A stretch of 4,893 nucleotides of DNA from a virus (Duplodnaviria > Heunggongvirae > Uroviricota > Caudoviricetes). The DNA lies in the IMG/VR virus record IMGVR_UViG_2541047122_000019. One strand, 5' to 3'. The translations under genes were made by a program, and so were the position numbers. Shown here piece after piece: positions 2,099 through 4,886 of the stretch; within the stretch, counting starts at the first letter, position 1, and each line of letters opens with the position of its first letter. The notes under the pieces are model-generated. The model searched no databases. It was given only the letters and a program-made list of their open reading frames with translations, and had not been told where the DNA came from.

Positions 2099-2521
2099 TC
2101 AATGCACTACGACAGAATCGCCGGGCGACCCACCACCGCTGAAATGTGCTTTCCGGTAAACGGCCTGGACTGCATCATCATGCGCATCAATTGCCGTACT
2201 CAACGCTTCCTGCGCCGCCAGTAATGCACGGCGTTCCAGGGTATCGAAGATGCAGAGTCGGTGACGCAGCTCGCGCGGAAGAATTGCCAGAACCGCAGGG
2301 ATCAGTTTCTGAATTTTTTCCCTTTGCGCTTTCGTTTCACCTTTCAACCAACGGTGATAGATATTCTGCTGATTGTTCCAGTCCTTGCCTGGTACAAGGG
2401 GCAATTCGCCGCCCCCCTGGCGCAGATATTCTTCAGTAATTGCGTTAGCGACCCACGCCTGCCCTTTTTCGGCTGCCAGGGCTAACAACACTGATTCGAT
2501 GTGCTCATGCCTGATTTTCAT
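2099..2521 (-). CDS. ydaT: YdaT-like protein (Rac/CP-933P prophage; described as a functional CII equivalent)
   Basis: 140-aa ORF MKIRHEHIESVLLALAAEKGQAWVANAITEEYLRQGGGELPLVPGKDW... matches YdaT of E. coli Rac-type prophages in length and sequence as recalled from memory. ATG at 2521..2519 with SD AGGAG 10 nt upstream. Start overlaps the stop of the upstream Cro-like gene (ATGA), and the position after cro is as expected for a cII analog. Confidence 0.75.
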   Translation of the reverse strand: MKIRHEHIESVLLALAAEKGQAWVANAITEEYLRQGGGELPLVPGKDWNNQQNIYHRWLKGETKAQREKIQKLIPAVLAILPRELRHRLCIFDTLERRALLAAQEALSTAIDAHDDAVQAVYRKAHFSGGGSPGDSVVVH

Positions 2522-2760
2522 GAATCAACCGCTCCTATGCTGTTTTCGCTATGCTTACCGTCTGGGGGGAATACATCGTCAAGTCCACAATGAGCGCCAA
2601 GCCGATTAAGGGTAGAAACAATTTTTCTGCACTCCTCTAGTCCAGGGGTACGAAAATTTGCTTCGTAATTTGCCAGTCGGCTTTGTATCCACCCTAACTG
2701 AACAGCAAGTTGTCTTTGAGACAGCCCAAGCTGTTTTCGATATGTTGAAATTTTGTTCAT
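2518..2760 (-). CDS. XRE-family HTH transcriptional regulator, Cro-like first gene of the leftward early operon
   Basis: 80-aa ORF; ATG at 2760..2758 with SD GGAGG (complement of plus 2767-2771) 6 nt upstream. HTH signature LGLSQRQLAVQLGWIQSRLANYEAN. Divergent from the repressor gene. Candidate promoter on the minus strand: -35 TTGACC (plus 2804-2809), 17-nt spacer, -10 TTTAAA (plus 2781-2786). Confidence 0.85.
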   Translation of the reverse strand: MNKISTYRKQLGLSQRQLAVQLGWIQSRLANYEANFRTPGLEECRKIVSTLNRLGAHCGLDDVFPPDGKHSENSIGAVDS

Positions 2761-2856
2761 TGAAAACCTCCGATGACAATTTTAAACACACCTTGTGTTA
2801 TATGGTCAATCTGTTTTGTGTTTTATGTAAATCACGATTCGTGATACAAGGATGCA
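2761..2856. promoter_or_regulatory. Divergent promoter/operator region of the immunity switch, between the Cro-like and repressor genes
   Basis: 96-bp AT-rich intergenic region holding the minus-strand promoter elements above and two 15-bp palindromes: AACACaccttGTGTT (2785-2799, over the -10/spacer of the cro promoter) and the perfect palindrome ATCACGAttcGTGAT (2831-2845, just upstream of the repressor SD AAGGA at 2848-2852). No convincing sigma70 hexamers were found for the repressor promoter. Confidence 0.6.
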
Positions 2857-3276
2857 ATGGAAAAAGAAAACGAAAAAATTGCCGCTAGTAGGCTCAATGA
2901 CAAAATTGCAATGCGTCTTAAAGAGCGCAGGCAGAAGCTTGGTTTATCTCAAGGAAAACTTGCTGAAATCTGCGGATGGACGCAATCGCGTATAGGTAAC
3001 TATGAGGCGGGCAGCAGAAATGTTGGAGTGCATGACGCTGTCGTATTGGGAAAGGCACTTGGCATATCTCCTCCTGAGCTCCTATTTGGAGAACAGGAAT
3101 CTTCTGAATTGTGGTTAAATGAATCCCAACGAAAACTTCTTGAGTTGTTTAACCAGCTACCTGGCTCAGAACAACAACGAATGATTGAGCTATTTGAAGT
3201 CCGGCTAAAAGAAATCGATGAGTATGTAGAAAAATATTTGAGAGGCAGGCTTAAAGATAATCCCCCACCGGAGTAA
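2857..3276 (+). CDS. Prophage repressor, XRE-family HTH N-terminal domain with helical C-terminal domain (DicA/RacR-like)
   Basis: 139-aa ORF, ATG 2857 with SD AAGGA, stop TAA 3274-3276. HTH LGLSQGKLAEICGWTQSRIGNYEAG. C-terminal LLELFNQLPGSEQQRMIELFEVRLKEI resembles the DicA C-terminal region as recalled from memory. Divergent from cro and followed by an intrinsic terminator. Confidence 0.85.
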   Translation: MEKENEKIAASRLNDKIAMRLKERRQKLGLSQGKLAEICGWTQSRIGNYEAGSRNVGVHDAVVLGKALGISPPELLFGEQESSELWLNESQRKLLELFNQLPGSEQQRMIELFEVRLKEIDEYVEKYLRGRLKDNPPPE

Positions 3277-3306
3277 TGATCTTGCTATCACAGTAATATG
3301 CCAATC

Positions 3307-3331
3307 AGCCCGCTATCAGCGGGCTTTTTTG
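3307..3331 (+). terminator. Rho-independent terminator downstream of the repressor gene
   Basis: Stem agcccgct (3307-3314), loop atc, stem agcgggct (3318-3325), followed by a T run to 3330 (gggcttttttg). 8-bp GC-rich perfect stem, 30 nt after the stop codon. Confidence 0.75.
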
Positions 3332-3359
3332 TACCATCATCATATGACACCCACCACAA

Positions 3360-3401
3360 AACACATTTCGTGTTGACATAAGAAAACGCATTGTGTTTAA
3401 T
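3360..3401 (+). promoter_or_regulatory. Near-consensus sigma70 promoter (TTGACA-17 nt-TTTAAT) overlapped by an operator-like palindrome; candidate repressor-controlled rightward early promoter
   Basis: -35 TTGACA at 3373-3378, 17-nt spacer, -10 TTTAAT at 3396-3401. Palindrome AACACatttcGTGTT at 3360-3374 overlaps the -35; a degenerate copy AAAACgcattGTGTT at 3383-3397 overlaps the spacer/-10. Same half-site family as 2785-2799. Confidence 0.55.
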
Positions 3402-3581
3402 AAGCATATCCAAACAACGCCCCACCAGAGAACGGCTGGACAATACCTCGAGTTATCCAGCCACTGAACAGGGCTAAGTAGCCAGCCTGAGGCATACGAA
3501 CATGACGGCAGTTGTTGATTGATACAAAGCGCAGTAGATAAAACGTTCCGCCACCCGGCGTTAAGGGGAAATGAGGTCAAC

Positions 3582-3734
3582 ATGGATACTATCGATCTTG
3601 GCAACAACGAATCTCTGGTATGTGGCGTGTTTCCCAACCAGGACGGCACATTCACCGCGATGACGTATACCAAAAGCAAAACGTTTAAAACCGAAGCTGG
3701 CGCGCGTCGCTGGTTAGCAAGAAACTCTGACTAA
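3582..3734 (+). CDS. Small prophage protein of the YdfA/YdaF type (about 50 aa; family name recalled from memory)
   Basis: ATG 3582 with SD GAGGT (3573-3577), stop TAA 3732-3734. Product MDTIDLGNNESLVCGVFPNQDGTFTAMTYTKSKTFKTEAGARRWLARNSD. Position downstream of the repressor matches the ydfA (Qin) / ydaF (Rac) arrangement. The track ORF starting at TTG 3519 has no SD. Confidence 0.65.
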   Translation: MDTIDLGNNESLVCGVFPNQDGTFTAMTYTKSKTFKTEAGARRWLARNSD

Positions 3735-3822: not shown

Positions 3823-4400
3823 ATCTGGATATCCATAACAGTAAAAATCTACAGATTGCCGTTCAGTTTTCTGGCCAACTCTTCAATAGATGGAGGTGAT
3901 ACGTAATCCGGATTTTTATTCATAAGAAACTGATTTTCACAGTACAGGCACCTGCTTTTATGAAAAAATTCATATTCTCTAACCGGGAATGGCTGAAGTA
4001 TCGATACTATCTTTTGTCCAAAACATTTTGGACAAAGATGCATGATTATGCTGCCGCCGTTCACGGTTACCTCCTTCGAGTACACAAAAGTTCCCGACTC
4101 AAGTTGGCTAAGGATATAACCTTCCGTCTGAGCCTCAAAGTTTTCAAATTCTGCAATTTTAGCTTTGAGAGAAGCATTTATTTCTTGATAAGTGCCCACC
4201 AGCTCAACGAGAGACACGCATTCGCGCTGAATAGATGCAAGCTTTGAGTTCAGTTCACCAATAGCCGCATTTACTTCAGCTTGAGTTTTTGCCTCGTTCA
4301 TTAGTTTTGCAATCTGGGCGGTTTCACGAATAGCCGTCATTGCTGCCGTTAATTCAGCGATCACATTCAATACTCTTATTGTTGTTGGGGATATCCAGAT
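3823..4400. mobile_element. Putative small insertion cassette: 578 bp, AT-rich, 12-bp perfect terminal inverted repeats, flanked by a 5-bp direct duplication TAACA, carrying one ORF
   Basis: Left end ATCTGGATATCC (3823-3834) is the exact reverse complement of the right end GGATATCCAGAT (4389-4400). The match extends inward to 17/19 (left 3822-3840 vs complement of 4383-4401). TAACA directly abuts both ends (3818-3822 and 4401-4405). Hand-counted GC is about 35% at 3961-4020 against about 60% at 1201-1260. Confidence 0.4.
3849..4340 (-). CDS. Hypothetical protein, about 163 aa: N-terminal coiled-coil-like helical region and C-terminal CxxC-x22-CxxC zinc-ribbon-like motif; cargo of the AT-rich cassette
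   Basis: Minus-strand ORF with stop TAG at 3851..3849. Best start is ATG 4340..4338 (MTAIRETAQIAKLMNEAK...); alternatives are GTG 4364 or the track start 4517, whose first 59 codons lie in GC-rich sequence outside the cassette and look like a spurious extension. C-terminus has HLCPKCFGQK...(22 aa)...CLYCENQ. No recognisable SD; AT-rich codon usage. Family not recognised. Confidence 0.6.
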   Translation of the reverse strand: MTAIRETAQIAKLMNEAKTQAEVNAAIGELNSKLASIQRECVSLVELVGTYQEINASLKAKIAEFENFEAQTEGYILSQLESGTFVYSKEVTVNGGSIIMHLCPKCFGQKIVSILQPFPVREYEFFHKSRCLYCENQFLMNKNPDYVSPPSIEELARKLNGNL

Positions 4401-4541
4401 TAACAAGATCCTTGTTGTTGGGGAATAACGGGGACCACCTCGCCTGACGTGGTAAAAAGCAGGCACACAACACGAAAGCACACGGCGAGGGACACCATTA
4501 AATGGTGGCTTAAGCAATCACGCGAAGCGCAATCTGCCATT

Positions 4542-4886
4542 ATGACCGATGAAATCCCGTTAGATGATGCACTGTTACAATTGCGGGAATTTATCGACGA
4601 AAACTCCGGTGAATTTTTTGTTCAGGTCTGGGGAAATGGAGCCAACTTCGACAACACGATTTTGCGCCGTTCATACGAACGGCAGGGGATCCCCTGCCCG
4701 TGGCGTTACACCAATGATCGCGATGTAAGAACGATGGTTGCTCTGGGACTGGTGATGGATTTCGACGCAAGAACGACTATTCCATTCGAAGGTGAACGCC
4801 ATAACGCCCTGCACGATGCGCGTTACCAGGCAAAATACGTTTCAGCCATCTGGCAAAAACTGCTCCCGAGTCAGGCTGATTTTTAA
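4542..4886 (+). CDS. DEDDh (DnaQ/Orn-like) 3'-5' exonuclease-like protein, apparently lacking the N-terminal Exo I motif (truncated gene or remnant)
   Basis: ORF open from 4404; track start GTG 4449, first ATG 4542; stop TAA 4884-4886. Exo II-like motif VWGNGANFDNTIL and Exo III-like motif HNALHDARYQ (H-x-A-x-x-D-A) are present. No D-x-E Exo I motif in any in-frame upstream sequence. Weak SD at both candidate starts. Confidence 0.55.
   Translation: MTDEIPLDDALLQLREFIDENSGEFFVQVWGNGANFDNTILRRSYERQGIPCPWRYTNDRDVRTMVALGLVMDFDARTTIPFEGERHNALHDARYQAKYVSAIWQKLLPSQADF

Follow-up and report, generated by a model that had tools for sequence, protein, structure and literature searches.

The viral sequence IMGVR_UViG_2541047122_000019 (4,893 nucleotides; this whole stretch is referred to below as the window) comes from a Rac-like lambdoid prophage located at ttcA in Escherichia coli O157/O145 and makes up its immunity region. 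It carries two divergent regulator genes, a repressor gene and a Cro-like gene, whose surrounding promoters bear a family of short palindromes that we read here as operators. The window is 99.8% identical to a chromosomal region of E. coli O145 and O157:H7 genomes, and RefSeq annotates the same repressor and cro gene pair. In one such genome (L001, O157:H7), the homologous region belongs to a Rac-like prophage integrated beside ttcA. According to its annotation, one arm of this prophage carries the replication genes ydaU/ydaV, ydaT and a small helix-turn-helix (HTH) gene, and the other carries the repressor gene, a DUF1391 ydfA-like gene, a dicB fragment, kil, recE, recT, xis and int. In the window itself, an open reading frame (ORF) with an IstB/DnaC-like ATPase domain (Pfam) follows ydaT. 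The gene order is that of phage lambda, as the replication genes, the cII-like ydaT and cro lie on one strand, and the right operator (OR), repressor gene, terminator and left operator with its early leftward promoter (OL/PL) lie on the other.

The Cro-like gene (2518–2760, minus strand) encodes an 80-aa protein (RefSeq WP_001033914.1) with an HTH_3 domain (Pfam, E = 6.7e-10) and the recognition helix QSRLANYEA. The closest solved relative of this protein is 28tn_A (E = 8e-15), and the stop codon of its gene overlaps the start codon of ydaT (ATGA). Across a gap of 96 bp, the divergent repressor gene (2857–3276, plus strand) encodes a 139-aa protein (RefSeq WP_000410105.1) with an N-terminal HTH_3 domain, the helix QSRIGNYEA and a short helical DicA-like C-terminal domain. 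A first-pass annotation made from the letters of the window alone had described the two proteins as having paralogous HTH domains with a near-identical recognition helix; the peptides that it quoted are indeed those encoded by these two ORFs, and pairwise alignment agreed with the description. The two domains, both HTH_3, were 45% identical over 42 residues (BLASTP, E = 2e-10), and the helices aligned as T-QSRIGNYEA-G (repressor) and I-QSRLANYEA-N (Cro-like protein), with the common form QSR(I/L)(G/A)NYEA.

A Pfam scan of the 139-aa repressor gave HTH families only, and neither an S24 peptidase domain nor a LexA-type cleavage domain was found. The NCBIfam DicA model NF007257 aligned with the repressor over positions 4–131 of 135 at 57.2 bits, below its cut-off of 101, and the C-terminus of the repressor aligned with those of DicA-type repressors. 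The N-terminal domain matched lambda cI (E = 2e-6), with LGLSQ falling on Gln33 and the QS of helix 3 on Gln44/Ser45; the matches in the PDB included the repressors of lambda, 434 (E = 6.5e-4) and P22 (c2, E = 4e-3). A different combination of domains was seen in Klebsiella phage Kp4865-4, in which the repressor (L005 1441–1872) has a DicA-like C-terminal domain as in the window together with an unrelated HTH. This phage also has an unrelated Cro, and its palindromes are of the TAAAG/CTTTA type. Such a mixture suggests that the C-terminal and DNA-binding domains are separately exchangeable modules.

Searching the window for AWCAC-N5-GTGWT returned exactly three matches, AACACACCTTGTGTT at 2785–2799, ATCACGATTCGTGAT at 2831–2845 and AACACATTTCGTGTT at 3360–3374, where 0.03 were expected; none of 200 shuffled sequences reached three. 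When one mismatch was allowed, only AAAACGCATTGTGTT at 3383–3397 was added. These are the four palindromes that had been picked out on the first pass, each of which was recovered at its original position. Throughout 19.1 kb of the homologous O157:H7 prophage, exact matches occurred only at the same three places (0.10 expected).

Two of the exact matches lie between the divergent genes. The OR1-like operator (AACAC-ACCTT-GTGTT, 2785–2799) is centred at 2792, 65 bp from the repressor ATG, and overlaps the −10 and spacer of the predicted cro promoter; the OR3-like operator (ATCAC-GATTC-GTGAT, 2831–2845) is centred at 2838, 19 bp from the ATG. Between them lies a degenerate OR2-like operator (AATCT-GTTTT-GTGTT, 2808–2822; centre 2815, 42 bp from the ATG), which retains the right half-site only. 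Beyond the repressor gene, the OL1-like operator (AACAC-ATTTC-GTGTT, 3360–3374; centre 3367) overlaps the −35 hexamer TTGACA of a PL-like promoter, and the degenerate OL2-like operator (AAAAC-GCATT-GTGTT, 3383–3397; centre 3390), with its one mismatch, overlaps the −10 region. Neighbouring OR centres (2792/2815/2838) are 23 bp apart, as are those of OL1 and OL2. AACAC/GTGTT halves are carried by OR1, OR2, OL1 and OL2, and OR3 alone is of the ATCAC type. The OR-like and OL-like layout proposed in the first-pass annotation therefore stands in that sites occur at both promoters, but its OR was bipartite, the half-site at 2808–2822 having been missed, and the OR described here is tripartite. In related switch regions, the middle OR site is found at a spacing of 22–25 bp, and in mEp213 it is a full site.

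The predicted promoter of cro, ydaT and the replication genes, which resembles the early rightward promoter (PR) of lambda, lies at 2779–2809 on the minus strand, with a −35 hexamer TTGACC at 2809–2804 and a −10 hexamer that is either TTTAAA at 2786–2781 (17-bp spacer) or TAAAAT at 2784–2779 (19-bp spacer). Its PL-like counterpart, a predicted early promoter at 3373–3403 on the plus strand, has the −35 hexamer at 3373–3378 and, as −10, either TTTAAT at 3396–3401 (17-bp spacer) or TAATAA at 3398–3403 (19-bp spacer). The TTGAC / GTGTTTAA arrangement of PR recurs at PL and in relatives, and the GTGTTGAC overlap between the OL1 operator and the −35 is kept in the loci of Chris1, mEp213, Scandinavium and Rouxiella. 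The PL-like promoter precedes a leader of 180 nt and then the ydfA-like DUF1391 gene (3582–3734); in the homologous prophage, the PL operon runs on to the dicB fragment, kil, recE, recT, xis and int. On the same strand, GATACA at 2843–2848 (element 2843–2857) is a possible −10 of a promoter like the lambda repressor-maintenance promoter (PRM), whose geometry it matches. Transcription from it, if it occurs, might begin at the A of the ATG (2857) or close by, giving a repressor mRNA without a leader. Downstream of the repressor gene lies a strong intrinsic terminator (3307–3331, plus strand), whose 8-bp stem includes six GC pairs and is followed by a T run. The sole hit of an Rfam scan of the whole window at E ≤ 1 was a sub-threshold one to Trp_leader, corresponding to this terminator.

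We then looked at how the sites are conserved. IMG/VR was scanned with an alignment of Cro, which gave 80 loci; 62 of these hold the full region 2701–3460, in 45 distinct sequence versions. Across the 45 variants, the 25 half-site positions of OR, counting the GTGTT of the middle site, were all invariant, whereas 28 of the remaining 71 intergenic positions differed (Fisher p = 5.7e-5). For OL, variation was confined to two of the 20 half-site positions, compared with 28 of 70 neighbouring positions (p = 0.015), and both variable positions fell in the left half of OL2 (2/5), the right half of which was invariant. The same pattern was visible within single sites: all ten half-site positions of OR1 were invariant and three of its five spacer positions varied, and at OR2 GTGTT (2818–2822) was invariant while the left half varied. 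The N5 spacers, the DNA between the sites and even the −35 hexamer of the cro promoter varied, leaving the half-sites more conserved than the −35. All 62 full-length regions keep every OR half-site base, so that the palindromes are not missing from homologous switch regions, an absence that the first-pass annotation had named as evidence against its reading.

The motif also followed the recognition helices across a wider set of 37 non-redundant switch regions, taken from one genome per species and several phages. It was present in all 26 loci in which both proteins carry QSR (E. coli, Citrobacter, Scandinavium, Rouxiella, about 20 Pseudomonas species, and phages Chris1 and mEp213), with two to three A[A/T]CAC-type matches within 130 bp upstream of cro. 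In four loci with ASR or KSR in the repressor and RSR in Cro, the half-sites were GACAC/GCCAC; the CAC-N5-GTG core was kept and the outer position was guanine. Where the helices were unrelated, as in Proteus, Moellerella and Klebsiella phage Kp4865-4, CAC-N5-GTG was not found and other palindromes were present instead. A pairing of Gln with adenine and of Arg with guanine at the outermost base is that expected from known HTH complexes.

On these grounds we consider it likely that the region serves its Rac-like lambdoid prophage as a bistable immunity switch of the lambda type. Comparison among relatives supports a predicted arrangement with OR and OL, at which two paralogous HTH regulators would use a single family of operators.

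Among known systems, lambda resembles this region most closely. Counted from the first base of cI in the annotated lambda record, OR3, OR2 and OR1 are centred at 19, 42 and 66 bp; the corresponding distances here are 19, 42 and 65 bp. Both systems have divergent repressor and cro genes, a tripartite OR, an OL over the early leftward promoter beyond the terminator, and a cro gene followed by cII-type and replication genes. The half-site A[A/T]CAC corresponds to positions 2–6 of the lambda operator, and the outer adenines are 14 steps apart in both. The outer bases of lambda OR2 (AACAC-cgtgc-GTGTT), OL1 (ATCAC-cgcca-GTGGT) and OR3 (ATCAC-cgcaa-GGGAT) fit the motif (L120 2452–2515 and 92–152). 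In lambda, Gln44 reads A2 of TATCAC and Ser45 reads the G paired with its C4. The fit of the lambda operators to the motif raises the possibility of cross-binding between the regulators of this prophage and lambda operators. The differences from lambda are also clear: the repressor here has 139 aa and a DicA-like C-terminal domain, without the S24 autocleavage domain; unlike lambda Cro, the Cro-like protein is all-helical and, as an HTH_3 protein, paralogous to the repressor; and the inner operator bases, CCGC in lambda, are AT-rich and not conserved. Furthermore, OR2 and OL2 are half-sites here, OL has two sites rather than three, the N gene and nut site are absent, and the cII analogue is YdaT.

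The first-pass annotation had likened the two regulators to P22 c2/cro and 434 cI/cro. As in those phages, repressor and Cro are paralogous, all-helical HTH_3 domains that would share their operators, but lambda is the closer analogue because of the QS at the start of the helix, the same half-site pentamers (ATCAC/AACAC), the same spacing and the 19/42/66 geometry. The 434 operator is ACAA-N6-TTGT, 14 bp in all, and the repressors of both 434 and P22 carry S24 cleavage domains. In 434, Gln28 reads A1, an instance of the rule that Gln at the first helix position reads the outermost adenine. The CI/Cro pairs of mEp213 (Aguilavirus) and of Pseudomonas prophages share with the window the QSR helices in both proteins and A[A/T]CAC-N5-GTG[A/T]T operators, mEp213 having three full sites at OR and three at OL. 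Their repressors differ in having a LexA-type S24 C-terminal domain, and mEp213 has N, nutL and a lambda-type cII.

Two E. coli prophage systems are alike in other respects. With DicA/DicC of Qin (E. coli K-12), the window shares a repressor spanned end to end by the DicA model, a divergent small HTH gene opposite it, and a repressed operon that starts with a ydfA-type DUF1391 gene and, in the homologous prophage, leads to a dicB fragment and kil, which are cell-division inhibitors. The repressor of the window differs from DicA in its recognition helix and in scoring well short of the family cut-off (57 vs 101 bits). CP-933P of E. coli O157:H7 likewise has a short repressor without a peptidase domain facing a Cro-like HTH gene that is followed by ydaT. 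In that prophage, the footprints of PaaR2 and YdaS overlap at OR, within an intergenic region of about 97 bp, both proteins repress the PL-like promoter, which bears matching operators, and the paaR2 mRNA was reported to be leaderless (PMC8630535). The operators differ: the CP-933P consensus is GTTTAGTAA (PMC8630535), in contrast to A[A/T]CAC-N5-GTG[T/A]T here. Moreover, in CP-933P the repressor gene is followed by the paaA2-parE2 toxin-antitoxin genes, whereas in the window the terminator and then OL/PL follow it with no intervening ORF. A literature search did not find a description of this operator family, of its two proteins, or of the mEp213 or Pseudomonas operators, although earlier work in subscription journals is possible. 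What we describe is thus a newly read operator set within a well-known kind of switch, and the system is a well-built but ordinary, textbook-type relative of the lambda switch.

From the observed sites, their conservation, the co-variation with the helices, gene order and synteny, and geometry, we infer how binding, the order of occupancy, cooperativity and promoter activation might combine in such a switch. In the lysogen, dimers of the 139-aa repressor would bind OR1 and, helped by protein–protein contacts, the weak OR2, blocking the promoter of cro, ydaT and the replication genes. Repressor on OL1 and OL2 (3360–3397) would block the early promoter of the ydfA-kil-recET-int operon. Bound at OR2, the repressor probably stimulates its own promoter, and at high concentration it would shut this promoter off from OR3; the centre of OR2 would fall at −42 on the assumption that the mRNA has no leader, like its counterparts in lambda and CP-933P. 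In the lytic state, the Cro-like protein would read the same family of sites, probably the ATCAC-type OR3 first, and turn off repressor synthesis. The Gln at the first residue of the helix would contact the outermost adenine of A[A/T]CAC, as do lambda Gln44 and 434 Gln28, and YdaT would fill the role of cII. As the repressor lacks an S24 domain, induction would have to take a route other than RecA-stimulated self-cleavage, an antirepressor being the likely alternative.

The exchange of part of this region between phages bears on which components carry specificity. The record named Actinobacillus phage vB_Apl-pPE4 (L003) encodes a Cro identical to that of the window, and the cro DNA is the same at 243 of 243 bases. 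With the window repressor, its own repressor shares only about 57% identity when aligned globally and 62% in the tblastn segment; the helix of this repressor reads SGSSRIANYE, and the operators are TTCAC-N5-GTGAG, CTCAC-N5-GTGAG and TTCAC-N5-GTGAT. When the two sequences were aligned, identity was 100% through the cro start codon (2760) and resumed at 3405, just past the −10 of PL. These two sharp junctions indicate that the exchanged unit, 2761–3404 in the window (1419–2095 in L003), is an immunity cassette that takes in OR, the repressor gene, the terminator and OL/PL but excludes cro. The ydaT gene adjoining the identical cro differs at 27 codons between the window and pPE4.

We refer to A[A/T]CAC operators with a QSR repressor as cassette A and to [T/C]TCAC operators with an SSR repressor as cassette B. 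In the 80 IMG/VR loci, every cro of the window's type adjoins one or the other, and the cro alleles beside A and B show 0–5 synonymous differences. Both cassettes are also found beside a cro variant of about 76% identity; when the two cro lineages are compared, identity is about 83% for the A repressors and likewise for the B repressors. A survey of 5,426 complete E. coli genomes located the cro allele at 163 places, 153 with cassette A and 10 with a full-length cassette B. Judged by the pairing of both cassettes with both cro lineages and by these genome counts, the dimorphism seems to be stable and of long standing, an indication that Cro functions with either operator set. OR3 ([A/T]TCAC-N5-GTGATA), where Cro is expected to act first, differs least between the cassettes. 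It is therefore conceivable, and we put it forward tentatively as a little less probable than the opposite, that specificity is borne by the OR-repressor-OL/PL cassette alone, with one generalist Cro serving A and B through the CAC-N5-GTG core or chiefly at OR3, and only the repressor defining heteroimmunity.

Several observations weigh against the lambda-type switch. The promoters named in the first-pass annotation have both their hexamer pairs, but a sigma-70 consensus scan listed neither, because the second position of each −10 hexamer is not the important A when the canonical spacer of 17 bp is used; the alternatives at 19 bp, TAAAAT and TAATAA, do have this A. Only a half-site is present at OR2 and at OL2. 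Many of the prophages that carry the region are cryptic (ydaU has a frameshift in L001), and in some hosts the switch may lack full function. The co-variation rests on few independent helix classes (QSR, RSR/ASR and SSR) and is, for this reason, suggestive support rather than statistical proof. Finally, the identical Cro is also paired with cassette B, the operators of which are mostly without the outer adenine, so Cro and repressor need not share an identical specificity. The earlier proposal that both proteins read the same half-sites agrees with the co-variation of the motif with both helices in the 37 loci, but it cannot be complete, as the same Cro also occurs beside [T/C]TCAC operators.

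This last point can be accommodated if the specificities are split, the full 15-bp palindromes being repressor sites and a generalist Cro needing only the CAC-N5-GTG core, or mainly the [A/T]TCAC-N5-GTGATA site beside the repressor gene. The positions of the two cassette junctions, at the cro start codon and past the PL −10, would fit such a split, as would the presence of one cro allele beside A and B, which between them account for all 163 copies, the carriage of both by the 76% variant, and the likeness of OR3 between cassettes. On the other hand, in the RSR/ASR group Cro, the repressor and the outer operator base change together, which argues that Cro does read that base; combinations with cassette B are also rare, and some may be in defective prophages. 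We regard split specificities as possible but on balance doubtful, and as a refinement of the lambda-type switch rather than a replacement for it. A different role for the palindromes would follow if the cro-like gene and ydaT were a toxin-antitoxin pair with the palindromes as its autoregulatory operator. Pfam and RefSeq do call YdaT a toxin ("toxin YdaT family protein"), small HTH_3 proteins are common antitoxins, and weak hits to HipB and MqsA-type proteins were obtained. YdaS and YdaT of CP-933P, however, were shown to be Cro and CII equivalents, YdaT being a DNA-binding tetramer (PMC8630535, PMC9986795), and PHROGs files YdaT as a CII-like activator. The palindromes, moreover, are found again at a second promoter, 570 bp distant on the far side of the repressor gene, and track the helix of the divergent repressor. 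We therefore reject the toxin-antitoxin explanation as very improbable.

It is slightly less probable still that the palindromes are chance or promoter-associated sequences, or sites for host factors, unrelated to the phage regulators. The sites do overlap AT-rich promoter DNA, and at both promoters the GTGTT half runs directly into the putative −10 (GTGTTTAA); promoter constraint could therefore account for some of the conservation. Yet only 0.03 matches were expected by chance, the half-sites are more conserved than the −35 hexamer, and the motif shifts with the phage regulator helices within the same host genera. The lambda-type switch remains our preferred explanation.

The ydaT gene (2099–2521, minus strand), translationally coupled to cro, encodes a cII-like regulator that matches Pfam YdaT_toxin (PF06254) and PHROG 163, "CII-like transcriptional activator" (E = 1.5e-36). 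The structure of CP-933P YdaT (8bt1) was a distant match (E = 1.7e-6). At the cro stop/ydaT start, in a PRE-like position (that of the lambda promoter for repressor establishment), the palindrome CTGATT-TTCATG-AATCAA (2511–2528) is a candidate YdaT site, with one mismatch to TTGATT-N6-AATCAA (0.04 expected). CP-933P YdaT gives a footprint at the equivalent place, the ydaS/ydaT junction (PMC9986795). We do not rely on this palindrome, as the YdaT of the window is only distantly related to the characterised protein.

The leader downstream of the PL-like promoter (3405–3581) is conserved over different immunity types and hosts: pPE4 matches it at 99% identity and many temperate phages of E. coli at about 76%. 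Its shared blocks are AAGTAGC, GCATACGAA, CGCAGCAGGT and ACGTTCCGCC, together with a CGCC-loop-GGCG hairpin, and they recur before unrelated first genes in Citrobacter phage Chris1, Aeromonas phage pAEv1818, and Enterobacter and Pectobacterium prophages. The leader has no Rfam match and no N gene after it, and it is unannotated or mis-annotated in phage records. As a structured RNA it gave a weak alignment fold (−9 kcal/mol, one compensatory pair) and a single-sequence minimum free energy z-score of −0.24; compensatory changes in the stem 3434–3440/3456–3462 were seen in a Pectobacterium locus (L094). The leader may possibly be an antitermination or processing signal.

Three further ORFs lie in the window. 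On the minus strand, 486–2021 is a single ORF of 511 aa with the IstB/DnaC-like ATPase domain in its C-terminal part. Its counterpart in L001 is two annotated genes, ydaV and a frameshifted ydaU pseudogene, and the version in the window seems to be fused or differently framed. Another minus-strand ORF (3849–4343, at least 164 aa) runs counter to the early-left operon in which it lies. Its product combines a coiled coil in the N-terminal part with CxxC...CxxC motifs and matches PHROG 1244 (function unknown); PADLOC gave no hit for it, and for the repressor gave generic HTH and controller-protein hits only. Other genes occupy this place in L001, and the ORF looks like a variable, moron-type insertion. 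Adjoining this inverted ORF is a plus-strand ORF for an Rv2179c-like 3'-5' exoribonuclease (4449–4886), which has a GTG start, is matched by the Pfam model only from position 47, and is probably truncated at its 5' end.

The result is a map, drawn from sequence, of the switch that governs immunity in a Rac-like prophage carried by 153 of 5,426 complete E. coli genomes, O157:H7 and O145 strains among them; the kil, recET and integrase genes are under the control of this switch. The link between a QSR helix and A[A/T]CAC half-sites extends from E. coli to Pseudomonas and echoes that of lambda Gln44/Ser45 with ATCAC, and it could be used to predict operators and immunity groups from prophage sequence. 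Apart from the A/B cassette dimorphism, the system leaves the general understanding of such switches unchanged. In the classical view, cI, cro and the operators form one co-adapted immunity unit. A generalist Cro, if confirmed, would depart from this view, and it predicts that Cro from one prophage type acts on the other. The A/B dimorphism around a common cro is a natural experiment on the extent to which repressor and Cro specificities can diverge.

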